Positions 28,591-48,061 of a DNA stretch of 64,000 nt are shown here, in pieces (positions within the stretch are counted from its first letter, which is position 1; every line of letters begins with the position of its first letter). A program made the translations under genes and the position numbers. The notes beneath the pieces were generated by a model. That model was not told the DNA's origin, ran no database searches, and saw only the letters and a program-made list of their open reading frames with translations. Source of the stretch: an uncultured Acidobacteriota bacterium (GTDB taxonomy: Bacteria > Acidobacteriota > Vicinamibacteria > Vicinamibacterales > UBA2999); assembly GCA_902826515.1 (NCBI GenBank), contig CADEFD010000005.1, positions 9,690 to 73,689 on the forward strand, written 5' to 3'.

Positions 28591-30096
28591 GTGGACGGGA
28601 CGTTCGACGTCGTCATCGTCGGCGCCGGCATCAACGGCGCCGCGGTGTGTCATGCGCTGACGTCCGCCGGTTACCGCGTGCTGCTGGTCGATCAGGGCGA
28701 TTTCGGCGGCGGCACGAGCCAGGCGTCCACGATGCTCATCTGGGGCGGCCTGCTCTATCTGAAGAACCTCGAGCTGGCCACGGTGCTGGCCCTGACCCGC
28801 GACCGCGATCGCCTGGTGGCCGAACACGCCGCGAGCGTGCAGGCGCGGCCCCTGCTCTACGTGCCGTCGGGCGGACCGCCGCGGGTCGTCGTCGAAAGTG
28901 CGCTCGCCGCCTATTGGGTGATGGGCGCCGGCAAACGCGCCCGGCCGCGTCGACTCGACGGCTATGACGAGCAGACCCACCTGGTCGCGGCAGGCGCCGC
29001 CTACGCGATTGAGGAGGCCGCACTCGTCACATCGGACGCCCGCTTCGTGCTCGAATGGGCGCTCGCGGCCGAACGCCTCGGCGCCGACATCCGCAACCAC
29101 GTCCGCGTGGACGCCATCGACAGCGCCGGTCCGAAGGCCGGATGGCGGCTGCGCCTCTGCGACGGACTGACCGGCGTCACCTCGGAGGTCCGCGCGCGGA
29201 TGGTCGTGAACGCGGCCGGCTGCTCGACCGACGCCGTGAACGACCGGGCCGGCATCACGTCGCCGTGGCGTCATCTCTTCAGCCGCGGCGTCTCGCTGGC
29301 CTTTCCGCGGCCGGCCTGGCACACGCGCCACCTCGTGCTCGACAGCGCCGACGGCGACGTGATGACACTGGCGCCGTGGGGCCCGGTGTCGCTGTGGGGT
29401 TCCACCGACACCGTGCACGCCGAACTCGCCGTCGCGCAGCGGCCGGCCGAGGTGGACGTCACACGTCTGCTCACGGAACTCAACCGGCACCTGCGCGCGC
29501 CGCTCGCGCGGCGTGACGTCATCTCGCTGCGCACCGGCGTGCGGCCGGTGGCGGTACGGCGTGACGCGACGGCGCCGAACGCGTCGCAGGCGCTGACCCG
29601 CCATCACCGCCTGCACCTCGACGGCTCGGAGCCCTGGGTCAGTGTGTACGGCGGCAAGCTGAGCGGCTGCCTCGGGCTCGCCGCCGAGGTGCGCGACCTG
29701 GTGGCCCAGCGCGTGTCTCCACGCCACCGTGCGCCGCTGCCGCGCGCCGCAGGGCACGACGTCGCCCCCCGCGTCACCACGACGTTCCCGACACTCGCCG
29801 AGCCGGTGGTGTCAGCTGCCTGGGCGGCCGCCCACGAGCACTGCGCCTCGCTCGACGACTACCTGCGCCGGCGCACCAACATCGCGCAGTGGGTGCCGCG
29901 CGGCGGCTTCGGCGCCGACGGCGAGCATGCCGACGCCCTCGAGCGCATCGCCCTCGAGATCCACGATGGCGACACCGGACTTGCCGAACGCGACCTGGCG
30001 CGGTACTGGCACCAGGTGTCGGTCACCGAGGACCTGCTGACACACACGCACCTGCCGGACGCGCCGCGCGCCTCCGCGCAGTGGAGACGGTTATGA
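28591..30096 (+). CDS. FAD-dependent glycerol-3-phosphate-dehydrogenase-like (GlpD-like) oxidoreductase
   Basis: GTG start. FDVVIVGAGINGAAVCHALTSAGYRVLLVDQGDFGGGTSQASTMLIWGGLLYL matches the GlpD N-terminal signature. Confidence 0.7.
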   Translation: MDGTFDVVIVGAGINGAAVCHALTSAGYRVLLVDQGDFGGGTSQASTMLIWGGLLYLKNLELATVLALTRDRDRLVAEHAASVQARPLLYVPSGGPPRVVVESALAAYWVMGAGKRARPRRLDGYDEQTHLVAAGAAYAIEEAALVTSDARFVLEWALAAERLGADIRNHVRVDAIDSAGPKAGWRLRLCDGLTGVTSEVRARMVVNAAGCSTDAVNDRAGITSPWRHLFSRGVSLAFPRPAWHTRHLVLDSADGDVMTLAPWGPVSLWGSTDTVHAELAVAQRPAEVDVTRLLTELNRHLRAPLARRDVISLRTGVRPVAVRRDATAPNASQALTRHHRLHLDGSEPWVSVYGGKLSGCLGLAAEVRDLVAQRVSPRHRAPLPRAAGHDVAPRVTTTFPTLAEPVVSAAWAAAHEHCASLDDYLRRRTNIAQWVPRGGFGADGEHADALERIALEIHDGDTGLAERDLARYWHQVSVTEDLLTHTHLPDAPRASAQWRRL

Positions 30097-31346
30097 CCCA
30101 CCCGCACCCTGCCCTGCTCGGCGGCCCGCCCGCCGTCACGCTCGACCAGCACGCCGCCAACCGCTGGCCGGTGCTCGAGGCCGACGACGAAGCCGCCGTG
30201 CTCGAGGTGATGCGCCACGGCGATCTCTCGAACCACGTGGTGACGCGCCACCTCGAAGACGACTTCCGCACCCGCCTCGGCTGCCGCCACGCGCTCGCGC
30301 ACGCCAACGGCACGCTCGGCCTGCTGGCCGCGTTCCACGCGCTGGACCTGGCGCCAGGCGACGAGGTCCTCGTGCCCTCGGCGACCTTCTGGGCGTCGGT
30401 GGTGCCGATGCTCTGGGTCGGCGCGGTGCCGGTCTTCTGCGAGATCGAGGGCGAACGCTTCGCGCTCGATCCGGCCGACGTGGAACGCCGCATCACGCCG
30501 CGCACGCGCGCCATGGTGCTCGTGCACCTCTGGGGCCTGCCGGCGAAGGTGGACGCGCTGCTCGAGATCGCCCGGCGGCATGGCCTCGCCGTCATCGAAG
30601 ACGCGTCGCACGCGCTCGGCGCCGTAAGCGGCGGCGTGCCGTGCGGCCGCTTCGGCGACATCAGCGTCTTCAGCCTGCAGACGTCGAAGCTCGCGGCCGC
30701 CGGCGAAGGCGGCGTGTTCCTCACCGACAACGACACCTACATGGAACGGGCGATCTGCCTGGGTGACATCGTGCGGATCTACGAGCTCACGACGCCCGCA
30801 CGGCGCTTCGCGGCCACGAGCTTCGGCATCAAGACCCGCATGGCGCCGCTCTCGGCGGCCGTCGGCCGCACGCAGCTCGCCAAGCTCGATCGCCACAACG
30901 CCCGGCGGGCGGCCAGCATCGAGGCTCTGGGCGCGCGCCTCGCGCCGCTCGGCTTCGAGACGTTCCCCTCGCCGCCCGGCACGACGCGCGTCTACTTCGA
31001 ACATCTCGTGCGCTACGACCCGGCGCACTTCGACGGCCTGCCGGTCGAATCCCTCATCGCGGCCCTGGCCGCCGAAGGCTGCGAGGTCACGGGGCCGCGG
31101 TATCCGCTGGTACATCAGCAGCCGTTCTTCACCGAAGGCCACTGGCGCGGGGTGGCGCGCCTCGCGCCGGGGGACCACGCCGACTGGCAGCCACCCGACC
31201 TGCCGATGAGCGCCGCCGTGCAGCGCAACATGCTGCGTCTGCCGACCTTCCCGTGGGCCGAGCCGGCCCTCATCGAGCAGTACGCGCAGGCCTTCGAGAA
31301 GGTGCACGCGCACGCGAGCCGCCTGCCGCGGCCGGCGCATGCGTGA
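30093..31346 (+). CDS. DegT/DnrJ/EryC1/StrS-family PLP aminotransferase
   Basis: ATGA overlap with the upstream stop. Family segment AVIEDASHALGA. PLP-Lys context SLQTSKLAAAGEGGV. Confidence 0.8.
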   Translation: MTHPHPALLGGPPAVTLDQHAANRWPVLEADDEAAVLEVMRHGDLSNHVVTRHLEDDFRTRLGCRHALAHANGTLGLLAAFHALDLAPGDEVLVPSATFWASVVPMLWVGAVPVFCEIEGERFALDPADVERRITPRTRAMVLVHLWGLPAKVDALLEIARRHGLAVIEDASHALGAVSGGVPCGRFGDISVFSLQTSKLAAAGEGGVFLTDNDTYMERAICLGDIVRIYELTTPARRFAATSFGIKTRMAPLSAAVGRTQLAKLDRHNARRAASIEALGARLAPLGFETFPSPPGTTRVYFEHLVRYDPAHFDGLPVESLIAALAAEGCEVTGPRYPLVHQQPFFTEGHWRGVARLAPGDHADWQPPDLPMSAAVQRNMLRLPTFPWAEPALIEQYAQAFEKVHAHASRLPRPAHA

Positions 31347-32445
31347 GCGACTGCGCCACGGCTGGCGCGCCGCGGCCTTCACGCTCGAGCTCGTGGCCGG
31401 GGACCGGGCGCGCTGGCTGACGGGGCGGGCGACGCCCGTCACCGTGACGCAGCACACGGTCGCGCACCACGGACGCGTCGTCTCTTACGAGTGTTACGCC
31501 GTGGCGAGGCGCGGCGGCTCGCGGTCTCCGGCGATCGTGGTCACACACGGCTTCACTCACGAAGGCGCCGCCGATCCGCGCCTGCAGGCGCTCTGCCGCC
31601 GCCTCGCGCGCGCCGGGTTCGTCGTGGTCGCGCCGGAGTTCGATGACATGCGGCAGTACCGCCTCGGCACCGGCGATCAGGCAGACCTCGAAGCCGTCGT
31701 CGCCGGCCTCGGCGCTCATCCGGACATCGACGTCCACCGGGTGGGCGTGATGGCGTTCAGCTTCGGCGCGGCGCCGACGCTCATCGGCCTCGCCCAGCCG
31801 CCGCTCAAGGAGACCGTGACGTTCGCCGTGATCTTCGGCGGGTACTTCGATCTGAAGCGCACGTTCAAGTACGTGCTGACCGGCGCCTACGACGGCTTCG
31901 GGTATCACGGCCGCCTGCCCGTGCCCACGGTGGGCGACGACCGCTGGAAGTTCCTGCGCGGCAATCTGGCGATGATTCCGCCGTCGCCCACGGCGCGTGT
32001 GCTCGAAGACACCGTCGTGCGACGGGTGGCCGACCCTGCCGCCGCGGTCGACGTGGGCGCGTGCAGCGAGGCGGAACGCGCCGCCTTCGCGCTCATCGAG
32101 AACCGCGATCCCGACCGCTTCGACGCCCTCTACGCCGCCGCCGCGCCGTTCGTGGACGCCTGGGTGCAGCGCCTGTCGCCCGTGCACACCGCGCACGGCA
32201 TCCGCGCGCAGCTCATCCTGATCCACAGCTTCACCGATCAGAAGACGCCCTTCATCGAGAGCATCGCGATGAGCCGTGGTGTGCCGGCGGCGCCGCCGCC
32301 GTCGCTCACGCTGCTGAATGCGTTCGCGCACGTGGACCTGCGGCTCAACTGGCGCAGCCTGCCCTCGCTCGTGCGCGACGGTCTGCCGGGGCTCGTCGCC
32401 GTCTGGCGCATCGTCGTGGCCGTGATGCGCGCCGCCCGCCTCTAG
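31339..32445 (+). CDS. Alpha/beta-hydrolase-fold protein
   Basis: 8-nt overlap with the DegT stop. Segment IVVTHGFTHEG. Nucleophile-elbow-like segment GVMAFSFGAAP. Segment LILIHSFTDQKTP. Confidence 0.6.
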   Translation: MRERLRHGWRAAAFTLELVAGDRARWLTGRATPVTVTQHTVAHHGRVVSYECYAVARRGGSRSPAIVVTHGFTHEGAADPRLQALCRRLARAGFVVVAPEFDDMRQYRLGTGDQADLEAVVAGLGAHPDIDVHRVGVMAFSFGAAPTLIGLAQPPLKETVTFAVIFGGYFDLKRTFKYVLTGAYDGFGYHGRLPVPTVGDDRWKFLRGNLAMIPPSPTARVLEDTVVRRVADPAAAVDVGACSEAERAAFALIENRDPDRFDALYAAAAPFVDAWVQRLSPVHTAHGIRAQLILIHSFTDQKTPFIESIAMSRGVPAAPPPSLTLLNAFAHVDLRLNWRSLPSLVRDGLPGLVAVWRIVVAVMRAARL

Positions 32446-32454
32446 CGCCCGGGG

Positions 32455-35400
32455 TCAGACCCTCCTCAGGGCGGCGCCGGACGTCCCGCCTGCGCCCACG
32501 AGGTCACCGAGGCGCGCGTCCGCCTCGCGGATGTTCGCCTCGATGTGCGCGGCAATCGCGGCGGCGAACGGCTCGTTCAGGAACGTGCTGTGGGAACCCG
32601 GCACGGTGTGGATGTCCACGCCGCCGCGGGCAATCGCCTTCCAGCCGTAGTCGTTCGCCTCGGGGAAGGGGCCGAGCAGCGGTCCGGTGCGCGGCAGGAT
32701 GAGCGTGGCCCGCCCGCCGAACGGCTTCGGCACGTAGGCGCGCAGCACGTCGAGGTGGAGGCGCAGCATCGCGACCTGCGAGTCCGGAAACCGCCACAGC
32801 CCGAGTTCGTCGCGGATGTCGCGCGGCCGCTCGGCACGGTCGTCCTCGTCGCGCCACGGCGTGAGGCGTCGCACCTTGCTGCGCACGCGGCTGGCGAGCC
32901 CGCCGACACCCGTGGGAAGGGCGTCGTCGCCAATCCAGCGCGGCAGGTTCTTCGCAAACGCCATCAGCAGTGGCGCGGGCGCCGGCGCCTCGCCGGCGGC
33001 AATCGCGTAGTCGAGCACCGTGAACGCGCCCACCTCGCGGCCCTGCGCTTCGAGCTGCCGCGCGATCTCGAGCACGATCACCGCGGCCGAACAGTAGCCG
33101 CCGAGGTGATAAGGTCCCTCGGGCCGGAGCGCGACCAGCTCGCGCGTGTAGGCCGCGGCGATCCGCTCGATGGTGCGATCGGCCGGCGCGAACGCCTGCG
33201 TCCAGTCGGCGGCGAACCCGTAGACCGGCCGCGCTGCCGCCAGGTGCTTCGTGACCTGCATGTAGCTGTAGATCTCCCCGCCCACGCCGTGCACCCAGAA
33301 GAACGGCGCTCCGGGACCGCCCGCGCTCATTCTGGCGAGGAGCGGTGTGGACGCCGCCGGCGGCGTGACGGCCGCCGCGGACCGCGACACCGTCCCGTCC
33401 GCAGTCGGCTGCGGGATCCGGGCGGCGGGTGCGGGCGGCGCCGGCAGCGCCGCCTCGATCGCGGCCGCCAGCTGGTCGAGCCGCGAGTGCTCGAAGAGCA
33501 CCACCGGCGCGAGCTTCACGCCGAAGGTCTCGCTCACCTGGTGTACGAGCTGAATAGCCAGCAGCGAGTGCCCGCCGAGATCGAAGAAGTCATCCGTGCG
33601 GCGCACCGCGGGCACGTCGAGCAGAGCCGCCCAGAGGCGCCCGAGGCGCGCTTCGACGGGCGACTCGGCGCGCTCCGGCATGCCGGCGCTCACGAGGCGC
33701 GCGCGGTCCGGATCCGGCAACGCCCGCTCGTCGAGCTTGCCGTTGGCGGTGAGCGGAAACTGGTCCACCGCCACGAACACGCCCGGCACCATGTACTCGG
33801 GCACCGACTGCCGCAGGTGTGCCTGCAGCTCCGCCGGATCAGGCGGCGCGCCAGCGGACTGCACGTACGCCACGAGCCTGAGGTCCGTGGCGCCGCCCGC
33901 GCCGGGCCGCGCCAGCACGCGGCAGCCGGCCACGCGCGCCTGCCGCGCCAGCACCGCTTCGATTTCGCCGAGTTCCACGCGGAAGCCGCGAACCTTGACC
34001 TGCAGGTCCAGCCGCCCGAGATACTCGAGCTCGCCGTTTGCGAGATAGCGCGCGCCGTCGCCCGACTTGTAGAGGGTGCCTGCGCCGAACGGATTCGGCA
34101 CGAAACGTGCGCGTGTCAGGTCGTCGCGGTTGAGATACCCCGCCGTCACGCCGGCGCCGCCGACATAGATCTCGCCGCGCGCTCCCACGGGCACCGGCTG
34201 CATCCGCTCGTCGAGCAGGTAGACCTGCCAGAGCGGCATCGGAGCGCCGATGACGCCGGCGCCCTGATGTGCCGTGTCGGCGCGCGTCACCGTGTGGAAG
34301 GTCACGAACACCGTCGTCTCGGTGATGCCGTACCCGTTCACGAGCGTGGGCGACGACTCGCCGTGTCGATCGAACCAGGCGGCGAGGCCAGGCATGTCGA
34401 GGGCTTCCCCACCGAAGACGACGTAGCGGAGGGCCAGCGTGCCGCGCTGCGCCTCGTCGACGGCCATCACCTGCCTGAACGCCGACGGCGTCTGGCTGAG
34501 CACCGTGACACGCTCGCGCACCAGCAGGTCGTAGAACGCTTCGGGCGAACGGCTCACCGCCTGCGGCACGACCACCACGCGGCCGCCGTACAGCAGCGCG
34601 CCCCACATCTCCCACACCGAGAAGTCGAAGGCGTAGGAGTGGAAGAGCGTCCACACGTCCGTGGCGCCGAAGGTGAAGAGCGGCGCCGCGCCGGCCATGA
34701 GGCTCACGACGTGACGATGCGTGACCATCGACCCCTTCGGTGTGCCCGAGGTCCCGGAGGTATAGATGACGTAGGCCAGGTCGTCCGGTCCCGCCACGGC
34801 CGGCGGATTCTCGTGCCCACCCGCCGCGTCGAGCACCTCGTCCACGAGCACGAGCGTGGCCACGCTGGCCGGCACGCGGCCGGCCACCGCGGCCTGCGTG
34901 AGCAGCACCGGCGCACCGGCATCGCGCAGCATGAACGCCAGCCGCTCGGGCGGATAGGCGAGGTCGATCGGCAGATACGCGCCGCCGGCCTTGAGCACGC
35001 CGAGGAGCGACGGCAGCAGCGCCGCGCCGCGTTCGAGGCAGACACCCACGAGCGAGCCGCGGCCGACGCCACGCGCCGTCAGCGCGGCCGCCACGCGATT
35101 GGCCGCCGCGTTGAGCTGGGCGTAGGTCCACGTGCGGCCGTCACAGGTGACGGCAGGCGCGTGCGGAGTCGCCGCCGCCTGCCCCTCGAAGATCTGCGCG
35201 AGCGGCACGGCCGGATCGAAGCGCAGCGGCTGCGGCGCCACGGGCGGTGCGGTGAGGCGCGCGAACTCCGCCGGCGAGACGAGCGGCAGCGTGCCCACCG
35301 GCTGCGCCGGATCGGCCAGGGCCGCCGCGAGGCACGTGCGGAACGCCTCGAGCCAGTGTTCGACGGTGGAGGCGTCGAGGATGTCGGCGTTGTAGTCGGC

Positions 35401-38400
35401 TTCGACCGCGAGGCCGGCCGGCGTCTCCATCACGTTCACGTGCAGGTCGCGGCGGGACGTCTCGCGCGGCACCGAGAGCACGGTGGACGGCAGCCCCGCG
35501 AATGTCGGGTCGGCGAACGAGGGCTCGAGGGTGAAGCTCACGGACACGAGCGGATCGCGCGAGAGCGACCGCGGCAGCCGCAGCGCGTGCAGCAGGCTCA
35601 GGTAGGTGTACTGCTGGTGGTCGTTGAGGTCGAGCGCGTGCGAGGTCACGGCGGCGACGTGGCGCGCAAACGGCGTGGCCGGATCCACCGCGCAGCGCAC
35701 GGCGATGAAGTTCACGCAGTGTGCGATCAGGCTCCGGGCGTCCACGAGCGCCTGCCCGGCCATCGGGATGCCGACCACGAAGTCGCCCTGGCCGCTCAGG
35801 CGCGAGACGAGCACCTGGAAGACGGCCAGCAGCGTCGAGAACGGCGTGGTGCGGTGCGCCGTGGCAAACCGCCGCACGCGATCCGCCAGATCGGTGTCGA
35901 ACGTCACGACGAGGCGGCGGCCGTTGAACGTCGCCACGGCCGGACGCGGCCGATCCACCGGCAGGTTCAGCGGCTCGGGCACCGTGGCGTACTGCGCGAG
36001 CCACCACGCTGCCGTTTCCCGCGCCTCGTCGTCGCCGGCCCGCTCCGCCAGTGCGCGCGCATACGCGGAGGCCGGCATCGCCGGCGGCAGCCCGTCGGGA
36101 CGCCCGGCGCGCCGCGCCTCGTAACACGCCTCGATTTCGCGCAGCAGCACCCCGAACGACCAGCCATCGCAGATGAGGTGATGGATGGCGATGACGAGCA
36201 CGTCACACCCGCCTTCGCGGATGAGGGCCACACGCCAGAGCGGACCGCGCGCGAAGTCGAACGGCTCGCGGTTGACCCGGCGCAGCACGTCCTCGCGCGC
36301 GGCCGTCGGGTCCGCCGCCTGCGTGTGATCGAATACCTCGACCACGAGCGGCAGCGACGCCGCCACGCGGAATCCCGGCGGCGTGGACGACACCGACATG
36401 CGCAGCGACTCGTGTCGCGCCGAGAGGTCGTTCACCGCGCCTTGAAGGGCGGCGAGATCGAGCGTGCCGCCGATCTCCTTGGCGACCACTTCGTTGAACG
36501 CGGCCGAGGCCACCGGCGACAGGTGCGAGCCGAGCCACACCTCCATCTGCGGTTCGGTGAACGGCACGAGGCCGTCGTCGGTCGCACCGCCGGCGGGGCC
36601 GTCCGGCGCCGGGGCGCCGAAGAAGCCGGCCCGTCGCATCTCGACGAGGCTCGTGTCGAGCGCCTCGACCACCTGCCGCAGTTCGGCCTCGGTGTGCGCG
36701 GTCGAGACGAAGAACGGCCGGTCCCACACGTGGATGCCGTGCAGGCGCAGGTAGTGGAAGAGCAGCCGCGCGAGCGGGTTCGCGTCAGTGAAGCTGATGC
36801 TGCAGATCGAGGCGCAGTGCTCGAGATGCATCGGCGCGTCGTGGCGGCGGAACGTCGCCTCGACATCCGCGGCGAACTGCCCGGCCTTTGCATTCAACTG
36901 GTCGTACAGCGCCGGCCCGGCGTCGCGCACCTGGCGCAGGGACGCCACCGCCGCCGCCAGGCAGAGTGCATTGCGCGTGAAGGTGCCGCCGAAGAAGGTG
37001 ACGCCGCCTTCGGGGAACGAGTCGTCGCCGAACTGCCACGGGCCGCCGTCGAAGGCGTCGAGGTACGGCGCGGCGCCGGCAATCGCCGCAATCGGCAGGC
37101 CGCCGCTCATGATCTTGCCGTAGCAGGCGACGTCGCAGTCCACGCCGAGGTAGCCCTGCGCGCCACGCGGATGCAGGCGGAAGCCGGTGATCATCTCGTC
37201 GTAGATGAGCGGGATATCGAGGTCGCGCGTCAGGCGACGCAGTTCGCGGAGCTGCTCGATCGGCTGGAAGTCGGGATGCCGCCCCTGCACCGGCTCCACG
37301 ATCACGCCGGCGACGTCGCCGGCCCGCTCGCGCAGCACGTCGAGGCTTCCCGGATCGTTCCAGTGCAGCACGATCACCTTGTCCACGAAGTGGTCGGGGA
37401 TGCCGGGTGCCGCCGCAGCGGCGCGGTAGCGGTCGGCGCGGCTCGCCGGCTTCACGAGCACTTCTTCCGACATGCCGTGGTACTCGTCGTCGAAGACAGC
37501 GATCCACTCGCGTCCCGTGGCGGTGCGCACGGCGCGGATGGCGCCCGAGAGCGCTTCGGAGCCGGTGTTGGCGAAGGTCACGCGCTCCATGCCCGTGATC
37601 TCGCGGATGAGGTCCGCGGCCTCCTTCGCGAGCGGTGAGAGCGTGCCGAGTTCGATGCCGCGATCGAGCTGCGCGCGCACCGCATCGGTCACCCACGGCA
37701 CGCCGTGGCCGAAGAGGTTCACGCCGAAGCCGGACGTGAGGTCGAGGTACTCGTTGCCATCGATGTCGCGGACCTTCGTGCCCTGCGACCAGTCGGTCGC
37801 AATCTGGTAGACGATCTCCTTCCAGACCTTACGGAAGCCGCCGACCGCGCGCGGATCGGCCAGCACGCCGCGCTGCGCGGCGGTGAGCGCCTTCGACGCC
37901 GCCGTCTTCGCGGTGTAACGGGCGATGAGATCGTCGAGGCCGCGCTGCTGCACCGGCGTGAGGCCGTGTGCCGACTGATCGATGCCGCGGAAGGGCCCGA
38001 ACTGCGGCGGCGCGGCCGGTGAGGCGCCGGTCGAGGCGGCGGGCGCTGTCACGGCCGGGGTCGGCGCGGTGGCCGCCACGGGCACGGCAGGCGCGGAGGC
38101 CGGCGCGAGAGCCGGCGACGCCGGCACGGGTGCGCCGCCGAGCAGCCGGAGTTGCTCCGCCATGAGCCGCAGTTGTACCTGCACCACACGTTCGAGGGCG
38201 CTGGCCGTCGCGGGCAGCATCGCCGCTGGCGCGGGCGCGAACGCGGAGGCGGTGGGGGCCACGAGCACCGCGGACGGTGGCGCGGTCACGGTGGGCGCCA
38301 CGGCGGCTGGCGACCCGACCGGCGCCGGCGGCAGCTTCCCGTCGATGAAGCGGGCCAGGGCGTCGATGGTCGGGGCGTCCTCGAAGAGCTGTCGGAACGT

Positions 38401-41334
38401 GACGCGCACCTTGAACTCGCCCTTGATACGCAGCGTCGCCTGCGTGAGGAAGAGCGAGTCGAAGCCCATCTCGAGAAACGCGACGTCGCGGCGGATCGTG
38501 CCAGCCGGCATGCCGCTGAGCGTCTGGAAGAGCGCCGTCAGGCGGCGGGCAATCTCATCGACGCGCGGCGGGGGCACCGGCGAAGACACGGACGCGGGAG
38601 GCGGAGTGGGCATCACGGGGACGTCCTGACGGGCGGGCACGGACACGGGCGCGACGGCCGCTGCTGCAACAGCGGGCCGCTCGGGGAAGTAGCGCTGGCG
38701 TTCGAACGGATACGACGGGAGCGAGGTTCTACGGGCGCCGGAGGTGTCGGGCAGCGCCGCCCAGTCGAGCGGCACGCCACGGCTCCACACGCGGCCGGCG
38801 GCCTGCAGCAGCACGGCGAGGTCGTCGGCCGTGTCGGCCGGCACGCGCATCGACGGCACGACGCCGCGCGCGTCGGTCACGCGCGCATGCTGGCGCGCGA
38901 AGGTGCTGAGCGCCTGGCCCGGCCCCGCCTCGACGAGCGTGCGATCGCCCTCGGCGAGCAGCGCGTCGAGGCCGGCCTGGAACCGCACCGTCTCGCGCAG
39001 GTGGCGCACCCAGTAGTCAGGCGACTGTGCCTCGGCGGCGGTCAGCCACGTGCCCGTGAGATTCGAGAGCACGGGACGCGCCGGCGCCGCGAGCGGAATA
39101 GTCTCGAGGAAGGCCCGGAACGGGTCGAGGATCGCATCCACCATCGGCGAATGCGCCGCCACGGCGATGCGCAGGCGCCGGCACTCGATGTCGTCGGCGT
39201 CGAGGGCACGGGCGAAGTCCGCGAGCGCGCCGGGAGCGCCGGCCACAACCGTGGACGCCTCGGCGTTGACCGCGGCAATCGCGAGCGCACGCGGCAGCCG
39301 GGCCCGCACGTCGGCTTCCGGCAGCGGCACGGCGAGCATGCCGCCCTCCGGCAGCGTCTCGAAGAGAGTGCCGCGCAGTTGCACGAGGCGCAGCGCATCC
39401 GGGACCGTCATCACGCCGGCCAGACACGCCGCCGTGTATTCACCCATGCTGTGACCGATGAGGGCGGCCGGCTCGACGCCCCACGCCATCCACTGACGCG
39501 CCAGCGCGTATTCCACCGCGAAGAGGGCCGGTAGTCCCCACGACGGCGCTTCGAGGCGTGCCGCCGCGGCCGCGTCATTCGCGGCCGGCCAGACCGCCGA
39601 CGCCAGGTCGCGATCGGTCACGAGTCCCAGGCACTGGACCAGCGTCTCGCGGAACACCGGAGCGTGGGCAGTGAGGCCGCGGGCCATGCCCACGTACTGC
39701 GCGCCGCCGCCGGGGAACATGAATGCGGCCGGCGCCGTGCTGGCTTCGAGCGCCGGCGCCACGCGCGGATCGGCGCTGCGCAGCGCGCGCACCGCCTCGC
39801 CGGTATTCGCCGCGACGACGGCGCGCCGCCAGGCGAACGGGTGACGTCCGGCGCGCAGGGTGCGTGCGACATCACGAAGCGGCCGCTCGGGCGACGCCTC
39901 GAGCGCATCGGCGAGTCGCGTCGTGGCGGCATCGAGGGCCGTCGGCGTCTTCGCGGACACGACAAGGAGGGTGCTCGCGGCGTCGGCGCCTTCGCGCGGC
40001 CGGTCTGGCGCTTCCTCGAGCACGACATGGGCGTTCGTGCCGCCGAGGCCGAAGGCACTCACCCCGGCCCGTCGCGGCGTCGGGCCCGCGGGCCAGTCGC
40101 GGCGTTCCGCCGCCACGACGAAGGGCGTGGCCGCGAAGTTGATGGCGGCGTTCGGCGCGCTGAAATGCAGCGTCGGCGGCACCTCGCGATGTTCGAGCGC
40201 GAGCACGGTCTTGATGAGCCCGGCCACGCCCGCGGCCGTGTCGGTGTGGCCGATGTTCCCCTTCACCGAGCCGATCGCGCAGAACCCGGTGCGGTCGGTG
40301 CCGGCGCGGAAGGCCTGCGTGAGCCCGGCGATCTCGATCGGATCGCCGAGCGGCGTGCCGGTGCCGTGCGCTTCGACATAACCAATCGAGTCGGCCGGCA
40401 CGTTGGCGACGGCAAGCGCGGTGGCAATCGCGTCCGCCTGCCCTTCCGGACTCGGCGCCGGAAAACTCATCTTCGCGGCGCCGTCGTTGTTGAGGGCGCT
40501 GCCGCGGATGACAGCGCGGATCGTATCGCCGTCGGCGATCGCATCGGCGAGGCGCTTCAGCACCACGAGGCCCACGCCGTCGCCGTTCACCGTGCCCTGC
40601 GCCTGCGCGTCGAAGGGCCGGCAGTGGCCATCCGGCGAGAAGATGCCGCCCTCGTGATAGTGATGCCCGGCGCGCAGCGGCACGCCCACGGCCACGCCGC
40701 CGGCGAGCGCCATGTCGCTCTGGTAGGCGAGCAGGCTCTGACAGGCCTGGCACACGGCGACGAGCGAGGTGGAACACGCCGTCTGCACGTTCATGCTGGG
40801 CCCGCGCAGGTTCAGCTTGTAGCTGACGCGCGTGGTCAGGTAGTCCTTGTCGGTGCCGAGCCTCAGCGGGTACGCCCCGTAACGCGTGCCCTCGGGATCC
40901 GCCGCGCGCAGGAGCGGCAGGTAGGTGGACTGGCTCATGCCGCCGAAGACACCGACGAGCCCCGGCGCGGCGAGCGGATCGTAGCCGGCGTCTTCGAGCG
41001 CGGCCCACGCACATTCGAGGAACAACCGGTGCTGCGGGTCCATGATCTCGACGTCGCCCGGCAGGTAGCCGAAGAACGCCGCGTCGAAGGTGTCGGCGTC
41101 GTCGATGACGCCCTTGGCGCGCACGTAGTCGGGATCCTCGACGAGCCCGGGCGGCACGCCGGCCGCCACGAGTTCCTCCGGCGTGAACCACTGGATCGAC
41201 TCACGCCCCTCGCGGAGGTTGCGCCAGAACGTGGTGAGGTCCGCCGCGCCGGGAAACCGTCCGGCCATGCCGACGACGGCAATCGCGTCCGCGAGTCCTT
41301 CGGGCAGGTCGGAGGCGTCCAATCCGGCGCTCAT
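32455..41334 (-). CDS. Hybrid type-I PKS / NRPS megasynthase: KS-AT-ACP-aminotransferase-C-A-T-TE (2959 aa)
   Basis: ATG 41334 overlaps the stop of the upstream NRPS (ATGA). All core motifs were read from the translation; see the domain features below. Confidence 0.95.
   Translation of the reverse strand: [2959 protein letters not shown]
32458..33345 (-). other. Thioesterase (TE) domain with Cys at the nucleophile position
   Basis: [10 protein letters not shown]; elbow LGGYCSAAV (Cys TGT = reverse complement of 33091..33093); [15 protein letters not shown] (His codon 32590..32592). Confidence 0.8.
33430..33642 (-). other. Thiolation (T/PCP) domain
   Basis: [16 protein letters not shown], with the Ser codon at 33565..33567. 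Confidence 0.85.
33655..35202 (-). other. Adenylation (A) domain, specificity unassigned
   Basis: [58 protein letters not shown]; NGKLD. Confidence 0.85.
35245..36567 (-). other. Condensation (C) domain
   Basis: [16 protein letters not shown] (HHxxxDG at 36163..36183). Confidence 0.85.
36610..37977 (-). other. In-line class-III (GSA-aminomutase-like) aminotransferase (AmT) domain
   Basis: [48 protein letters not shown]. PLP-Lys context [11 protein letters not shown] (Lys codon 37114..37116). Confidence 0.8.
38335..38562 (-). other. Acyl carrier protein (ACP) domain
   Basis: [12 protein letters not shown], with the phosphopantetheinyl Ser codon at 38455..38457. Confidence 0.8.
38785..39729 (-). 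other. Acyltransferase (AT) domain (approximate bounds)
   Basis: [16 protein letters not shown] (Ser codon 39448..39450). The specificity/catalytic-His motif reads VAAHS (39151..39162 = VAAH). Confidence 0.8.
40015..41289 (-). other. Ketosynthase (KS) domain (approximate bounds)
   Basis: [13 protein letters not shown]; active site TACSTS (Cys codon 40774..40776); [27 protein letters not shown]. Confidence 0.85.
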
Positions 41335-44300
41335 CGGGCCGTGCCCCGCGCGGCGCGCATGCGGGCCGCGTGGTCGCGCTGGCGGGCGGCGCGATCGGCT
41401 GGCGCGGCCGCAGCCACGGCGAGCGGCGCATCGGTCGCGCGCGCCAGCTCCGCGGCCAGGGCGCGCACGGTGGGCAGCCGGAACAACATGACGATCGGCA
41501 CGTCGAGGCCGAGCGCGTCGCAGAGCCGCCGGTGCACCTGCATGAGCGACAGCGAGTGGCCGCCGGCCTCGAAGAAACTCACCGTGACGCCGACCGCGTC
41601 CACGCCGAGCACCTCGCACCAGATCGCCGCGATACGCCGCTCGAGGTCGGTGGCCGGCGCGACGCGCCGGGCCGCCTCGCCGCCGCCGGCCGCCGGCCTG
41701 GGCAGACGCGCCCGATCGAGTTTGCCGTTCGGGCTGAGCGGCAGCGCGGCGAGCGCCACGATGTGCTGCGGCACCATGTAGTCGGGCAGCGCCGCGGCGA
41801 GCGCCCGGCGCAGGCTGTCGACGGCCGCCGGGCCGGTCACGTACGCCACGAGCTGCGGATCGCCGGGCACGTCCTGGCGCGCCACGACCACGGCGTCGGT
41901 CACACCCGGCTGCGCGGCGAGCGCCGCTTCGATCTCGCCGAGTTCGATGCGGAACCCGCGCACCTTCACCTGGTGGTCGGTGCGGCCGAGGTACTCGAGG
42001 GCGCCGTCGGGCAGGCGGCGGCAGATGTCGCCGGTGCGGTACAGACGCGCGTCCGGCACAGCCGCGAACGGATCGGACAGGAACCGCGCGGCGGTGAGAT
42101 CCGGACGGCCGTGATAGCCGGTCCCCACCTGCACGCCGCCGAGATACAGCTCACCGGAGACGCCAGCCGGCACCGGTTCGAGCGCGTCGTCGAGCACGTA
42201 ACAACGCGTGTTGGGCGCGGCGTAGCCAATCGGCACGCGCGTCGTGGGCGCTTCGCGGGGACACGTCCAGTGCGTCACGTCCACCGCGGCTTCGGTGGGC
42301 CCGTAGAGATTGCGGAGCGTCGCCGGGAGCACGCGATGGCAGGCATCCACCAGGTCGGGCGCCAGGGCTTCCCCGCTGCAGATGATCTCGCGCACCGAGG
42401 TGCACGTCGCCACATGGCGCGCCTGGAGGAACACACGCAGCATCGACGGCACGAAGTGCAGCACGGTCACCTGGTGCGTCGTGACGGCGGCCACGAGGGC
42501 ATCGGGATCGCGATGGCTGTCTGGCGCGGCCACGACGAGCCGGGCGCCTTCCCCGAGCGGCCAGAAGAACTCCCACACCGAGACATCGAAACTGAACGGC
42601 GTCTTCTGCAGCACCGCGTCGGCCGGCGTGAGCTGATAGAAGGCCTGCATCCAGCGCAGGCGGTTCACGATGCCGCGATGGGTGTTGATGGCGCCCTTGG
42701 GCCGCCCGGTCGAGCCCGACGTGTAGATCATGTAGGCCGGGTCGTCGGGCCCGATCGATGCGACCGGCGGCGTGGCCGGCCGCTCGTCGAGGGCCTCGCC
42801 GGCCTCGTCGAGCGCCAGCACGATGGCGTCGGTGTGCAGGCGCGCGGCCACCTCGAGGTGCGTCACGACCACCGTGGCGCCGGCATCCGCCAGCATGAAG
42901 GCCACACGGTCGGCCGGATAGTCGGGGTCGATCGGCACGTAGGCGGCGCCCGCCTTGAGCACCGCCAGGAGCGTCACGACCATGTCGAGCGATCGCTCGA
43001 GACAGACGGCGACGCGCTCGCGGGGCTGCAGGCCGAGGCCGCGCAGGTGGTGCGCGAGCTGATTGGCGCGGCGGTCGAGCGCCGCGTACGTGAGCGTGCC
43101 CTCGCCGGCGACGACCGCCACCGCATCGGGCGTGCGCGCGGCCGCGGCTTCGAACGTGTGCTGCAGGAGCCCGGCGGGGCCGTAGTCCACGTCGGTGTCG
43201 TTGCCGTGCGCGAGGAGGGCCCGGCGCTCGTCGGCGGTATGCAGCGGCAGGCGGCCGATCGGGAGGGCGGCCGCCAGCGGCATCGCGAGCAGCAGCGTGC
43301 GCAGCCCGGCCAGCATCCGCGCGGCCACGCCCGGCTCGAGGCGGTCGTGATAGAAGCCGAGGTGCAGCGACAACCGCTCGCCACCGTAGGCCGTGAGCGT
43401 GACACCGATATTGGTCTGGCCGTGATACGCGACACGGCGCGACGCCCAGGCGCCGCCGCGCGATCGCATCACCTCGTCGATCGCCCGGTGTTCGTAGACG
43501 ACGAGCGTGTCGAAGAGCGGCTGGCCCGCGGGCACGGCACTCGCCGCCTGCACGCGCGTCAGCGGCGTGTGCGCCCAGGGCCGCTGAGCGCGCCAGGCGC
43601 GGCGCACATCGGCGAGAAACACTTCGAGCGGCTGCGCGCGGTCGATCGCCACCCGCAGCGGCAAGGTGTTGATGAGCAGGCCGAGCATCCGCTCGACGCC
43701 GGGCACCGGCAGATGACGGCCGGCGCGGGTCACGCCGAACATGACGTCGTGCTCGTGACTGTAGTGGTGCAGCAGGAGCGCCCAGGCGGCCTGCACGAGC
43801 GTGTGCATGGTGACGCCCTGCGCGGCGGCAAACGACTCGAGCGCCGCTGTTTCCGCGGCTTCGAGCCGGCGCGCGATCTCGTCGTGCACGCGCGTCGCCG
43901 GTGGCGCCGCCGGTGCCGGCGCGGCGAGGGCGAGCCGCGTGGGCGAGGTCACACCGGCAAGCGTGGCGTGCCAGAAGCGATCGGCCGCGGACCAGTCGGT
44001 CGCGGCCAGCGCCCGCACGACGTCGCCGAAGGCGCCGCGCGGTTCGACGGCGCGCGGAGCCGCCGCATGGTCGTAGCGCGCGAAGACGTCATCGAGCACG
44101 AGCGGGAACGAACGGCCGTCGAGCAGGGCGTGATGGAACGTCCAGATGAGGATGTCGTCGCCGCCGGCCTCCTGCAGGAGCGTCCAGCGCATCACCGGGG
44201 CCTGGTCGAGGGGCAGCGGACGCCGGCGATCGGCGGCGAGCCACGCGGCCAGGCGCGGCGCCACGTCGGCAGGGGCGACGTCGCGCCACGACTCGACCGT

Positions 44301-44609
44301 CCAGTCGAGCGTGACGTCCGGCGCCGCCTGCTGCACCGGGCGCCCGTCGGCCGTCCACGTGAAGGCCGTGCGGAGCATCGGCTCGGCGAACACGACGGCG
44401 CGCCACGCCGCGTGCAGGTCGGCGGCGCGCAGGCGCTCGCGCGTGCGGAGGACGATCTGTTCGATGTCCACGCCCGACCCGGGGGCGCGGACGGCGTGCA
44501 GCAGCATGCCCGCCTGAAGGGGGACGAGCGGCAGCGGCGCGTCGGATGCAGCGGCGGTTGGCGGCGGCGCGGGCAGCAGCGCGTCCCGCCCGGTGATGGG
44601 TGGTGTCAT
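41331..44609 (-). CDS. NRPS module C-A-T (1092 aa), A domain predicted Ser
   Basis: [10 protein letters not shown] (HHxxxDG 44115..44135); [62 protein letters not shown] (Ser codon 41553..41555). Confidence 0.95.
   Translation of the reverse strand: [1092 protein letters not shown]
41430..41657 (-). other. Thiolation domain T1
   Basis: [16 protein letters not shown]. Confidence 0.85.
41685..43172 (-). other. Adenylation domain A1 (hand-read code DVWHISLVDK, Ser-like)
   Basis: Specificity positions were read by ungapped alignment to GrsA-PheA numbering between FDVSVWE and [11 protein letters not shown]. Confidence 0.75.
43245..44537 (-). other. N-terminal condensation domain of the first module (approximate bounds)
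   Basis: [13 protein letters not shown]...; [13 protein letters not shown]. Confidence 0.8.
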
Positions 44610-44907
44610 GGACAGTTTCCGGCCGGGGTGACGAGCAGTGCGCGCCGAGCACCGCGTTCCGCCCCTGCGAGGCCGTGCGTGTCTTCACGCACCCCCGTGC
44701 ATCGCTGGTTCGAAACGCCGTGACGCTGCCTCGGCGGCAGCTTTGATAGCAATCCACGGGCCAGACGGCGGCACGCGCGCGCAGCGCGTCACGAACCAAG
44801 GGCCCGGCAATCCTCGCGCGACCGGACATTCTGCGAGGCCAGCGGGGCCATTGCCGCGCCGAACCGGAGAACAAAGTTCTTCCAGACGACGGACTTCCCG
44901 GTCGACC

Positions 44908-45741
44908 TCAGCGCCGCGGCACGAGTCGCACTTCGCCGGCCGGCGGGTCGATGAAGATGGATGTGAAGAGGGTGGCCGGCAGCAGCCCGTCGCCCGTCCG
45001 TGGCTGCGAGGCCGACACCAGCCGCACCGTGGGCACGGCGCCGAGCGGCAGCCCGGCCAGCGAGAGCTGCGCGCGTCCCGCGCGTGCGGCCACGCCGCCA
45101 CCGGCGGTGCCGAGTGTCACGGCCTCGCCGCGCACCTCAGGGTCGAAGACCACGACGGCTTCGGCACCGGTATCGAGCACGAGCTGGCGTGGCCGGCCAT
45201 CGACCCGCGCCTCGATCACGAACCGGCCGCCGGTCTCGCGGACCGGTACGCGCACGCCGCGCACGCCGCGTGCGTCATCCGCGGCCACGAAGGTGAGCAG
45301 CCCCGCGGCGAGGTCGATCAGCACGCGGTCGCCGCCGAGCGCGTCCATGCCGAGGATGCCGTCGATCTCGGGGTCGCGGCCCAGTGCCGCGAGGTCGGCC
45401 ACCACCACGGGGAACGCCCGCCGCACCCGCTCGCCGAGGTGGAGCGCCGGCAGAATCGCCTCGCCCACCTCGACCATACCGGCGGGTGTGAGCAGCCGCC
45501 GGCCCGGCATCACGACGAGTCCGGCGCGCCGCGCCGCCGCATCGGCCAGCACCGTGTGGGAGCTGCCGGTATCGATCAGGAAGTGCCAGGGGCGCCCTGC
45601 GGGGTCCGCGTGCACGGGCGCCGTCCAGAGCCCGCCGCCGGTGCGGGTGAGCGACACGCCGCGTCCCGCGGCGCCGACGCGCGGGGCGGCGGTGACGGAC
45701 GCGAGTGCGACGAGCAGACAGAGCGCGGTGCCGTGGGCCAT
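44908..45741 (-). CDS. Secreted retropepsin-like (clan AA) aspartyl protease with two DTG lobes
   Basis: Signal peptide MAHGTALCLLVALASVTAAP. Two catalytic-type motifs in one 277-aa chain: FLIDTGSSHTVL and LVLDTGAEAVVV. ILGMDAL flap-like segment. Confidence 0.7.
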   Translation of the reverse strand: MAHGTALCLLVALASVTAAPRVGAAGRGVSLTRTGGGLWTAPVHADPAGRPWHFLIDTGSSHTVLADAAARRAGLVVMPGRRLLTPAGMVEVGEAILPALHLGERVRRAFPVVVADLAALGRDPEIDGILGMDALGGDRVLIDLAAGLLTFVAADDARGVRGVRVPVRETGGRFVIEARVDGRPRQLVLDTGAEAVVVFDPEVRGEAVTLGTAGGGVAARAGRAQLSLAGLPLGAVPTVRLVSASQPRTGDGLLPATLFTSIFIDPPAGEVRLVPRR

Positions 45742-45850
45742 GGTGCCCCACGGTGCGCCGCGCCGCCCCGCCGCGTCGTGACGCGGGGCGACGGCAGCCG
45801 CGCGGAAATGATGTGGAAGTGGTGATGAGGCCGAAACCGGCCGGAATTCG

Positions 45851-47983
45851 CTACCGCGTGCGGGTCGCCGGCGGCAGCTCGACCAGATACAAGGTGCCGC
45901 GGACGTCCGTCCGGTCGTAGGCGATGAGGTCGCCGCGCGGCGACCACGACGGATACCGCGTGGTCACTTCCGGGTCGGTTTCCGTGATGACCGGCGTGCG
46001 CGCCCCGGTCGCCGGGTCGAGCGTCTCGATGTTCCACACCCCGCGGTCACCGAGCGTGGAGAGCGCCACGCGCCGGCCATCCGGCGAGAAGGCTCCCGGC
46101 CAGAACTGGCCGATGGCTGGCGACACACGGCGCGCCGTGCCGGTCGCGACCTCGCCGAGATACATCGGCATGTGCGCGCCTTCCTTCTTCTCGAGCGCGA
46201 GCTGCCGGCCGTCGGGCGACCACACCGGAAACGCGTAGCCGTCGAAGAGCGGCCAGACGCCGAACGTGCCGCGCGACAGCGACCCGCGGCCCACCGTGTT
46301 GAGCGGCTCCCCGAGCGTGGCCACCACCGTGTCGCCGTCCGGGGCGACCCGGGGGAACGTGGCGGCTTCGGGCAGCGGCAGCCGCTCGGTGACGACGCCG
46401 GTCTCGAGGTCCGCCTCGACCAGATACGGCGAGAGTCCGATGCGGCGCATGGCGAAGAGCCGCCGGTTGCTCTGCCATGTGGGATACAACACGCGGCGCC
46501 CGCCGGAGAGGACGGACCGGTCGTTGGCGCCGTCGACGTCCATCACGCGGATCTCGGCGCCCGTGTCGTAGGCGATGCGACGGCCGTCGGGCGAGATGGC
46601 CGGGTGCCCGCCGGGACGGAGCTGTCGAGGGGCGCCGGCGGGTGCGCCGGCGCTCGTCACCGGCACGGTCCAGATGTGCTGGCGAGGCCGGATGAGCACG
46701 AGGGCCGCCAGCCGTCCGCCCGGCGCGATCGAGACCGCGCGCGCGGCCTCCGGCAGCGACGGAATGACGACGTCGGCGGCGAGCGGTGCTCCCGTGGCCT
46801 GGTCGCCGACGCCGACGCGGACCAGGCGGTTGCCGGCCAGGGGCCACTCGACCACCCACGCCGACACGCCCGTGGGGCCCGGCGTCAACTGCCGCACGTG
46901 ATAGGTCCAGCTGTCGGCGCGCTTGGTCAGCAGGCCGTCGCGCACACGCACGGACCAGAAGTCGATGGGCCCGTTGCGCGAGGACGCGAAGTAGATCTGC
47001 GTGCCGTCGGGCGACCACAGCGGCTGCCAGTGGCCGCCGGGCGGATCGCCGGCCCGCGTGAGCGGGCGCGCCTCACCTCCGCTGGCCGGCACGATCATGA
47101 TGTGTGACCCGGGCTGCGCCCACTCGCTGACCCACTCGTCGGTCTGGAACGCGATCCACTCGCCATCGGGCGACCAGGCCGGACGGGAGCCCGTGGCGGC
47201 CACCTGGCGCGCCGCCCCGCCGTCGCGGCCGATCACCCAGATGCCGCGGCGCAGCGACGAGTGATAGGCGATCGAGGCGGAATCCGGCGACCACACGGGA
47301 TGCACGTTGCGCATGCCGTCGGCGGTGACGGGGCGCGAGGTGCCCGTGCGCAGGTCGCGCACGGCGATCTCGAAATCGCCGGTGCCGTCGGAGACCACCG
47401 CCAGCCACCGCCCGTCGGGCGAAAACGTCGCGGCGAGCACCGAGCCGCCGGCGTCGATGGCGGTGAGCCCGCCGGCCTCGGGCCGGGCGTCCGCCCGGCG
47501 TCCCGCCACCATCCAGAGCGCGGCGCCGACACATGCCGCGAGCGCCACGAGCGTGGCGATGACGGCGCGGCGTCGTGGCGCCGGCCGCAGCTCAGCCGGC
47601 GCGGAGGCCGGAGCCGCGGCCACCACGACCGGGGGCGGCACCGGCACGGCGTCGGACGCGTCGGACGCGGGTTCGTGGCGCACGTCCGCGATGAAGCGAT
47701 ACCCGCGCGTGGGCACCGTCTCGATGAGGCGCGGCGCGGTGGCATCGTCGCCGAGCTCGCGCCGCAACTGCGCGATGACGCGCGTCACGGCGTTCGGCGT
47801 GACGGCCACGTCGGCCCACACGCCGTCGAGGATTTCGTCCTTGGTGACGAGCCGGCCGGGGCGCTCGACGAGGAACCGCAGCACCTCGATCGCTTTCGGC
47901 TCGAGGGCGAGCCGGCGGCCGTTCCTCGTGACGTCGAACCGCTCGACGTCCAGCGCAACATCGGCGAAACGGTATCTGGACAC
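45851..47983 (-). CDS. Membrane-anchored one-component regulator: OmpR/CadC-type winged-helix domain + TM + TolB-like (PD40) beta-propeller
   Basis: GTG start. YRFADVALDVERFDVTRNGRRLALEPKAIEVLRFLVERPGRLVTKDEILDGVW...TVPTRGYRF. TM segment AVIATLVALAACVGAALWMVA. Repeated motifs SPDGRxxA..., WSPDG.... Confidence 0.8.
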   Translation of the reverse strand: MSRYRFADVALDVERFDVTRNGRRLALEPKAIEVLRFLVERPGRLVTKDEILDGVWADVAVTPNAVTRVIAQLRRELGDDATAPRLIETVPTRGYRFIADVRHEPASDASDAVPVPPPVVVAAAPASAPAELRPAPRRRAVIATLVALAACVGAALWMVAGRRADARPEAGGLTAIDAGGSVLAATFSPDGRWLAVVSDGTGDFEIAVRDLRTGTSRPVTADGMRNVHPVWSPDSASIAYHSSLRRGIWVIGRDGGAARQVAATGSRPAWSPDGEWIAFQTDEWVSEWAQPGSHIMIVPASGGEARPLTRAGDPPGGHWQPLWSPDGTQIYFASSRNGPIDFWSVRVRDGLLTKRADSWTYHVRQLTPGPTGVSAWVVEWPLAGNRLVRVGVGDQATGAPLAADVVIPSLPEAARAVSIAPGGRLAALVLIRPRQHIWTVPVTSAGAPAGAPRQLRPGGHPAISPDGRRIAYDTGAEIRVMDVDGANDRSVLSGGRRVLYPTWQSNRRLFAMRRIGLSPYLVEADLETGVVTERLPLPEAATFPRVAPDGDTVVATLGEPLNTVGRGSLSRGTFGVWPLFDGYAFPVWSPDGRQLALEKKEGAHMPMYLGEVATGTARRVSPAIGQFWPGAFSPDGRRVALSTLGDRGVWNIETLDPATGARTPVITETDPEVTTRYPSWSPRGDLIAYDRTDVRGTLYLVELPPATRTR

Positions 47984-48061
47984 GGGGGCTGCCGCCCATT
48001 ATCCGCGACGGGCCGCGCGCGTCGACGTCGTTGGGACGAACGTCGGGTCCAGGTGGGCAGA

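Follow-up and report, generated by a model that had tools for sequence, protein, structure and literature searches.

What would a bacterium make with an assembly line in which a polyketide module carrying an aminotransferase is fed by an amino acid and which ends after one further amino acid? The question is raised by two genes, here called geneA and geneB, in a stretch of 64,000 nucleotides from an uncultured Acidobacteriota bacterium (GenBank assembly GCA_902826515.1, contig CADEFD010000005.1, positions 9,690 to 73,689), which as a whole is referred to as the window. We consider it probable, at roughly 0.6, that the two coupled genes encode a functional, compact three-module line consisting of a nonribosomal peptide synthetase (NRPS) module, a polyketide synthase (PKS) module and a second NRPS module, in which a serine would be N-capped, extended and aminated at the beta position before release by a thioesterase with a cysteine nucleophile.

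Two coupled genes for a hybrid assembly line

At a G+C content of about 72%, spurious long open reading frames (ORFs) are common in the window, and genes were therefore chosen by their third-position G+C content (GC3). Two of them lie next to each other on the minus strand, geneA at 41331-44609 (1092 aa) and geneB at 32455-41334 (2959 aa from the ATG at 41334), and can be read in the sequence to share an ATGA at 41331-41334, where the ATG of geneB overlaps the TGA of geneA. Pfam finds Condensation, AMP-binding and PP-binding in geneA, a condensation-adenylation-thiolation module (C-A-T). In geneB the order is ketoacyl-synt N and C, Acyl_transf_1, PP-binding, Aminotran_3, Condensation, AMP-binding, PP-binding and Thioesterase, that is ketosynthase (KS), acyltransferase (AT), acyl carrier protein (ACP), aminotransferase (AmT), C, A, T and thioesterase (TE). 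E-values across both genes range from 1e-15 to 1e-99. The resulting features are as follows.

41331..44609, minus strand: geneA, initiation module C-A-T (Pfam); start consistent with relatives of 1092-1095 aa
43212..44534, minus strand: C1, condensation domain (Pfam 2.1e-58), active site intact
41721..43154, minus strand: A1, adenylation domain, code DVWHISLVDK read as serine (code extraction)
41448..41639, minus strand: T1, carrier domain with FFEAGGHSL (Pfam PP-binding 2.3e-16; motif)
32455..41334, minus strand: geneB, KS-AT-ACP-AmT-C-A-T-TE (Pfam); its ATG overlaps the geneA stop
40162..41289, minus strand: KS, Cys-His-His triad in TACSTS, EAHGTGT and GNIGHT (Pfam 9.8e-69 and 4.3e-44; motifs)
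38881..39723, minus strand: AT with GHSMGE (Pfam 3e-43)
38350..38562, boundaries approximate, minus strand: ACP with MGFDSL (Pfam PP-binding, second stretch)
36730..37803, minus strand: AmT, class III, dependent on pyridoxal phosphate (PLP), lysine in CYGKIMSGG (Pfam Aminotran_3 1.2e-39)
35254..36567, minus strand: C2, condensation domain with IHHLICDGWS (Pfam 1.3e-73)
33736..35190, minus strand: A2, adenylation domain, code DFWSVGGVFK (code extraction)
33457..33648, minus strand: T2, carrier domain with FFDLGGHSL (Pfam PP-binding 3.4e-28)
32536..33306, minus strand: TE with a cysteine nucleophile (Pfam 6.6e-15)

A first-pass annotation, made by a model from the sequence alone, had described this gene pair, its translational coupling and its domain order. 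The overlap is plain in the sequence, the order is borne out by Pfam for all domains, AmT and TE included, with catalytic residues intact, and a string search recovered all 14 of the core motifs that had been quoted, in the stated order. The catalytic motifs of C, A, T/ACP, KS, AT and TE are colinear, as in a thiotemplate hybrid NRPS-PKS. KR, DH, ER and MT domains, or an extra Condensation-family (E, epimerisation) domain, had been reported as lacking and were likewise not found by Pfam in geneA or geneB. Among 38 other high-GC3 ORFs of the window, which leave the gaps at 11.9-13.1, 14.3-15.1 and 63.5-64.0 kb unscanned, Pfam detected no further NRPS, PKS, carrier protein, acyl-AMP ligase or phosphopantetheinyl transferase (PPTase), and a six-frame motif scan of the window gave nothing MbtH-like. 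The earlier statement that no PPTase, acyl-AMP ligase or MbtH gene lies nearby could therefore be retained, while its addition that no export gene is visible is only loosely true, given an NCS1-family permease (27358-28581) and MacB/FtsX-type permeases (1-5128).

The genes are maintained. Eleven relatives of geneB have the same size and domain set at 45-89% identity, all from metagenomes or metagenome-assembled genomes (MAGs), and against the closest metagenomic locus, L007 (89% identical), geneB shows an overall ratio of nonsynonymous to synonymous substitution rates (dN/dS, Nei-Gojobori) of 0.13, a comparison of geneB only, with C1 outside it. By part, the ratio is 0.05-0.13 in each catalytic domain and 0.25 in an Ala/Pro-rich linker. 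GeneB is under purifying selection, and with a dN/dS of 0.13 a reading as pseudogene or relic was rejected. L007 also shares the end of the upstream C-A-T gene (84%) and the downstream hydrolase gene (90%). The first-pass annotation had guessed, from gene content, a lineage like Acidobacteriota or Gemmatimonadota; a search with the serine dehydratase did not confirm this, as it gave MAG matches at 87-97% and, as the best matches bearing a taxonomic name, a mixture of an Acidobacteria MAG (85%) with Burkholderiales and Steroidobacteraceae (about 80%).

Proposed course from serine loading to release

We propose a course in which A1 would load L-serine onto T1, and C1 would cap the amine of this residue, using an acyl group or some other donor, bound to a carrier or to CoA, that originates outside the locus. 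The KS would join the N-capped seryl thioester to a malonyl-type extender from the AT, giving 4-(acylamino)-5-hydroxy-3-oxopentanoyl-ACP, in which the AmT would turn the 3-keto into a 3-amino group, so that a beta,gamma-diamino unit (3,4-diamino-5-hydroxypentanoyl), a vicinal diamine, would result. C2 would couple this unit, held as a thioester on the ACP, to the amino acid that A2 selects. The TE would release the chain, plausibly with the new beta-amine attacking the thioester and closing a seven-membered 1,4-diazepane-2,5-dione, or alternatively by hydrolysis to a linear acid.

The amination step is indicated by the AmT domain itself, whose best solved match is the aminotransferase of MycA (6kfm, 6.7e-100, with the PLP lysine of YGK aligned), against about 1e-46 for free glutamate-1-semialdehyde aminomutases in the same search of the Protein Data Bank (PDB). 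The catalytic lysine is invariant in an alignment of relatives (alignment A1), and the class-III PLP domain sits between an ACP and a C domain, as in MycA-type modules. Judged by its sequence, it is a MycA-type in-line beta-keto aminotransferase, in agreement with the first-pass annotation, and MycA aminates an ACP-bound beta-ketothioester (PMC3870968). PKS-embedded AmT domains were found to be widespread in GTDB genomes in a scan with the AmT alignment, none of the matches listed exceeding 49% identity. The fatty-acyl or polyketide priming of MycA-type modules is missing here, since the upstream partner is a C-A-T with a serine code, C-A(Ser)-T, and no acyl-AMP ligase lies in the window; that the KS is fed by an NRPS module had been recognised earlier and holds.

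For the loading module, A-domain codes were read against a GrsA fragment with internally consistent numbering. The A1 code, which recurs in about 20 stand-alone C-A-T homologues, is close to the classical serine code DVWHLSLIDK, and A1 is accordingly read as carrying a serine code. An identical code is found in module 1 of variovoracin RlpB, which incorporates a serine N-acylated by a fatty acid, acylation by the N-terminal C domain of RlpB having been proposed from the product structure (PMC12964202). As is expected of a starter C domain, C1 opens the first module of the line and has kept its active site (HHALLDG). In six sister loci (L001-L006) the gene before the KS gene is not a C-A-T but an A-MT-T of about 1040 aa with a proline-like code, DVQxxAHVT, and an A domain about 43% identical to A1, so that with either loader the starter amine would be blocked. 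Taken together, the intact leading C1, the acyl-serine code in RlpB and the methylation of the starter amine in the sister loci argue for N-capping, which would also be sensible chemically, because a free gamma-amine beside a beta-keto thioester should self-cyclise. The serine is therefore probably capped and the product larger than a tripeptide; the roughly tripeptide-sized product that had been predicted is probably too small, as the intact C1 lets an extra N-terminal acyl or aminoacyl unit be expected. A role of geneA in supplying an aminomalonyl extender was also considered and rejected, the sister loci pairing a proline-like A-MT-T with the same AT.

At the other end of the line, the TE motif GGYCSAA had been pointed out before and is present; that its nucleophile is a cysteine had been overlooked. 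This residue, Cys2748 (codon TGT at 33091-33093, minus strand), aligns with the nucleophilic serine of 7crn (GWSLGS) and with the cysteine of AB3403 (GGWCFGG), and it is conserved in all compact-family relatives. The triad is completed by an aspartate at +27 from the cysteine, in canonical position I as in AB3403 and 7crn, and by the histidine of PGSHS. A cysteine nucleophile is uncommon in TE domains and is known from ObiF1, SulM and AB3403; in ObiF1 and SulM, which form four-membered rings, the triad aspartate follows strand beta-7 (position II) (PMC11298585). The TE of geneB shares the cysteine with these two, with neither the relocated aspartate nor the Gln-Cys-Asn of SulM (it has Tyr-Cys-Ser), and neither ObiF1 nor SulM appeared among its sequence matches at E<0.01. 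A beta-lactone- or beta-lactam-forming TE was rejected on the grounds of the canonical aspartate and of variation in A2. The A2 code DFWSVGGVFK is conserved in P0001-P0005, and among compact-family relatives the A2 codes vary, pointing to no assignable residue, Ala, Thr or a Val-like residue. Since the Cys-TE stays constant while the A2 codes vary, release likely uses a constant part of the chain, and by analogy with iturin-type macrolactamisation the beta-amine is most plausibly the nucleophile. The cysteine is also seen in many more distant AmT-containing proteins, in the form GG[FY]CFGG.

Several observations weigh against the proposed course. Although it stands at the start of the line, C1 resembles DCL domains in sequence: its best PDB matches are McyB C1 (1.6e-64), followed by PvdL, BacC, TycB1 and SrfA-C down to 5e-35, while LCL-type domains reach 1e-16 at best and starter-C structures only 1e-8 (CDA-C1) and 2e-11 (RzmA), so that by these scores C1 does not group with known starter C domains. 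Among the window ORFs scanned, Pfam detected no acyl-CoA ligase, FAAL or free carrier protein that could supply the cap, and no PPTase. The residue chosen by A2 is not assignable from its code, for which literature searches on DFWSVGG gave no match; no precedent could be cited for a seven-membered lactam formed by an NRPS TE, and the mode of release is pure inference. Finally, the AT has non-canonical, ZmaA-like motifs, which leave the extender uncertain, with malonyl-CoA as the default.

The AT motifs open the alternative that the extender is alpha-substituted, of hydroxymalonyl, methoxymalonyl or methylmalonyl type, in which case a 2-substituted 3-amino acid would be built. In the AT, VAAH replaces HAFH/YASH and a leucine replaces the conserved glutamine of the second, RVDVVQ-type motif. 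Both changes are common to the whole compact family (among the AT domains compared, 14 have VAAHS, all 10 compact-family relatives shown being among them, and 98 others have HAFHS), and the best solved match is ZmaA-AT (4qbu, 6.7e-62), an AT specific for hydroxymalonyl-ACP with the related motif GAAH. The likeness to ZmaA-AT extends to xAAH, whereas the AT has E-C-R in place of the hydrophobic MXW/MCM motif of ATs using ACP-linked extenders, and its GHSMG keeps the histidine that is lost in the GYSxG of ZmaA. An FkbH, free ACP or dehydrogenase cassette for such an extender was found neither in the window nor in nine related loci, and literature searches on the VAAH motif gave nothing relevant. 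We therefore regard an alpha-substituted extender as doubtful, though it deserves to be kept in mind.

The character of C1 in turn allows for a split line, in which C1 would be a true DCL elongation domain receiving a D-aminoacyl or peptidyl chain from an NRPS encoded elsewhere, and the two genes would be its end. The best solved matches of C1 do follow epimerisation domains, with certainty for McyB C1, TycB1 and SrfA-C and as inferred from the sizes of the crystallised constructs for PvdL and BacC, and one C1 motif is of the DCL kind, going by the motifs of Rausch et al. 2007. Against this, the assembly line begins with C-A(Ser)-T both in the window and in four other loci, and the genes further upstream are unrelated (no NRPS gene precedes it in the window, L088, L089, L091 or L093), the 64-kb window holds no NRPS with an E domain, and the A-MT-T loaders of the sister loci mark this position as the start of a line. 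Such C-A(Ser)-T genes lead lines of different build: of two from soil metagenomes, that of L089/L090 (10001-17186, an Acidobacteriia MAG) continues with KS-AT-ACP-TE, among polysaccharide genes, and that of L093 (10001-23315), with a PPTase gene just upstream, continues with KS-AT-KR-ACP, KS-AT-ACP and C-A-T-TE; in L091 a KS-like gene follows that is cut by the contig end. A split line appears unlikely to us.

Even less probable is a silent C1, which would leave the serine amine free and yield a tripeptide-sized 3,4-diamino-5-hydroxypentanoyl-Xaa. In its favour, no gene supplying a donor is visible in the window; yet the HHxxxDG motif is kept, C1 is 65% identical in L088, and the free gamma-amine, which the sister loci block by methylation, would on chemical grounds be expected to self-cyclise to a lactam. 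Homologues of geneA with 1060-1110 aa and the same layout are common, and even at about 40% identity they retain this layout and length, which also speaks against a silent domain; a metagenome scan gave full-length relatives of at most 48% identity and some partial matches up to 61%. N-capping of the serine by C1 remains the reading that we prefer.

A mosaic locus and its neighbours

A C-A-T loader occupies the site before the KS gene in three loci: the window, L007 and L088. Identities to the window, in percent, are given below for one locus of either loader type.

L003 (A-MT-T loader), PKS module and C2: KS 61, AT 65, AmT 68, C2 71
L003, remaining parts: A2 82, TE 84, hydrolase 87, DegT 95; C1 and A1 none
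L088 (C-A-T loader), loader and PKS module: C1 65, A1 72, KS 79, AT 52, AmT 45
L088, remaining parts: C2 33, A2 43, TE 71, hydrolase 72, DegT 89

Identity of the synthetase domains to the window is thus a mosaic (33-84%), which, together with the two loader types, suggests that cassettes have been exchanged by recombination. Conservation is much higher in the flanking genes (DegT 89-95%, DAO1 81-84%, amidohydrolase 84-85%), and the locus therefore fits the pattern of a variable cassette at a conserved chromosomal site. Whether the compact family as a whole builds vicinal-diamine units, with a Cys-TE closing a small ring and with loader and A2 being swapped at one fixed site, is a broader proposal that we can put forward only tentatively.

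The genes around the synthetase are the following.

44908..45741, minus strand: secreted aspartic protease (Pfam Asp_protease_2 1.1e-19), directly upstream of geneA; putative pathway link
45851..47983, minus strand: CadC/OmpR-type winged-helix regulator with TolB-like propeller (Pfam Trans_reg_C and PD40, NCBIfam)
31339..32445, plus strand: alpha/beta hydrolase (weak DLH match), convergent with geneB across a 9-base gap; putative pathway link
30093-31346, plus strand: DegT-type aminotransferase (PLP), whose ATGA at 30093-30096 overlaps the stop of the preceding FAD oxidase gene
27358-28581: NCS1-family permease, about 4 kb from the synthetase genes
23199-24569, minus strand: class-V aminotransferase, cysteine-desulfurase-like (PLP)
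5129-7804: M1 peptidase gene, following the MacB/FtsX-type permeases
1-2622 (cut by the window end) and 2312-5128: two tandem MacB/FtsX-type ABC permease genes

In L088 the neighbourhood runs in the same order, from the regulator through the aspartic protease and the C-A-T gene to the KS-to-TE gene, followed as in the window by the convergent genes for the hydrolase, the DegT aminotransferase, an FAD oxidase, the NCS1 permease, a sarcosine-oxidase-like FAD enzyme and an amidohydrolase. The protease (277 aa) carries a signal peptide, and its two DTG motifs mark it as a retropepsin-like enzyme with two lobes in a single chain; it is absent from the A-MT-T loci, and no protease gene was found beside the geneA relatives of the metagenome scan. 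The winged-helix/TolB protein is a possible cluster regulator, and the hydrolase is 72-90% identical in L003, L007 and L088.

That these neighbours (protease, regulator, hydrolase, DegT, two FAD oxidases and NCS1 permease) belong to the pathway, for instance with a periplasmic protease removing the N-cap, is favoured by the ten-gene block that L088 shares in the same order before synteny breaks on both sides, the contigs differing outside it, and by the signal peptide and paired DTG motifs of the protease, but it is improbable given flanks far more conserved than the synthetase, as expected for core genes beside a variable cassette, a protease and regulator present in only two loci, and the lack of Hyd, DegT and DAO2 in L002, L004 and L005; known prodrug peptidases, moreover, are of the ClbP (S12) family and not aspartic proteases.

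The amidohydrolase, the sarcosine-oxidase-like FAD enzyme and the NCS1 permease form a trio (24807-28581 in the window) that adjoins the synthetase in the window, L002, L004, L005 and L088. It looks catabolic; its amidohydrolase resembles an Xaa-Pro dipeptidase, with a score of 287 bits that stays below the cut-off. A palindromic hairpin of about 90 bases (48051-48142) lies in the gap that follows the regulator gene; it may be a terminator or operator, and on each strand it gave weak matches, below the threshold, to a miRNA family. Rfam detected no riboswitch or leader in 31000-48500.

Comparison with known systems

The locus is an intact, maintained orphan cluster of known domain types. Soil metagenomes abound in orphan hybrid clusters of this kind, and the locus agrees throughout with established assembly-line logic. 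What makes it noteworthy is the combination of a serine-primed aminating PKS module, a conserved Cys-TE, a ZmaA-like AT and a polymorphism of loader cassettes at one locus. The gene pair covers 12.2 kb and, if it is expressed, should yield a small molecule containing a vicinal diamine derived from serine; the small size of the line makes heterologous expression realistic. The natural recombinants, which combine different loaders and second amino acids with the same KS-AmT core and Cys-TE, could guide the engineering of NRPS-to-PKS junctions. Should a vicinal-diamine family with a ring-closing Cys-TE be real, it would represent both a new small-molecule scaffold and a case of natural module exchange.

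The first-pass annotation had considered an amino-acid-fed KS-AmT unusual, which was overstated. The arrangement C-A-CP-KS-AT-CP-PLP-C-A-CP was catalogued from genomes already in 2013, in F7QBN5 of Salinisphaera shabanensis and C6XWU5 of Pedobacter (Milano et al. 2013, PMC3870968, Table 2), and dozens of larger proteins, in Longimicrobium, Kofleriaceae, Lysobacter and Thermoanaerobaculia and known from metagenomes, have NRPS modules fused before KS-AT-ACP-AmT. F7QBN5-type proteins share with the window the succession of an NRPS module, KS-AT-ACP-AmT and a second NRPS module; unlike it, they are single fused proteins for which no TE is listed, glycine is the predicted first residue and products were not reported (PMC3870968). 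Literature searches, which did not cover MIBiG and antiSMASH, brought up neither a characterised pathway or product in which an AmT module is primed by an amino acid, nor a serine-derived vicinal-diamine unit among characterised assembly-line products. Flavipulchrin and solanimycin were considered as counterparts and rejected as unrelated.

For single parts of the line, closer parallels can be drawn. Variovoracin RlpB module 1 and serrawettin SwrW have, like geneA, a C domain at the N-terminus and a serine-specific A domain after it, but their C domains group with the starter type (PMC12964202), unlike the DCL-like C1, and their lines have no PKS module. The TE shares its cysteine nucleophile and the canonical position of its aspartate with AB3403, which is itself uncharacterised. 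Zwittermicin ZmaA is likewise a serine-primed hybrid module, and its AT shares xAAH with that of the window, while differing in GYSFG, in a hydrophobic carrier-recognition motif and in a dedicated extender cassette; in addition, ZmaA has a KR rather than an AmT.

As to the aminating module, microcystin McyE and nodularin NdaF (KS-AT-ACP-AMT-C-A-T-C) have the string KS-AT-ACP-AMT-C-A-T in one protein, as geneB does; McyE, however, lengthens the long polyketide Adda, which it receives from PKS modules upstream, and its last domain is a C rather than a TE. A likeness in logic can be drawn to MycA of mycosubtilin/iturin (AL-ACP-KS-(AT)-ACP-AMT-C-A-T), in which the in-line AmT also stands between ACP and C, so that, as proposed here, a beta-keto thioester is aminated before the peptide bond is made. 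The iturin family joins a beta-amino fatty acid to a heptapeptide by seven NRPS modules, and with only two A domains present the line of the window is not an iturin-family synthetase. Whereas MycA receives a fatty acid via an acyl-AMP ligase and an ACP and has six further amino-acid modules behind it, the KS of the window would be primed by serine, and its line would add one amino acid before release by a TE of the cysteine type.

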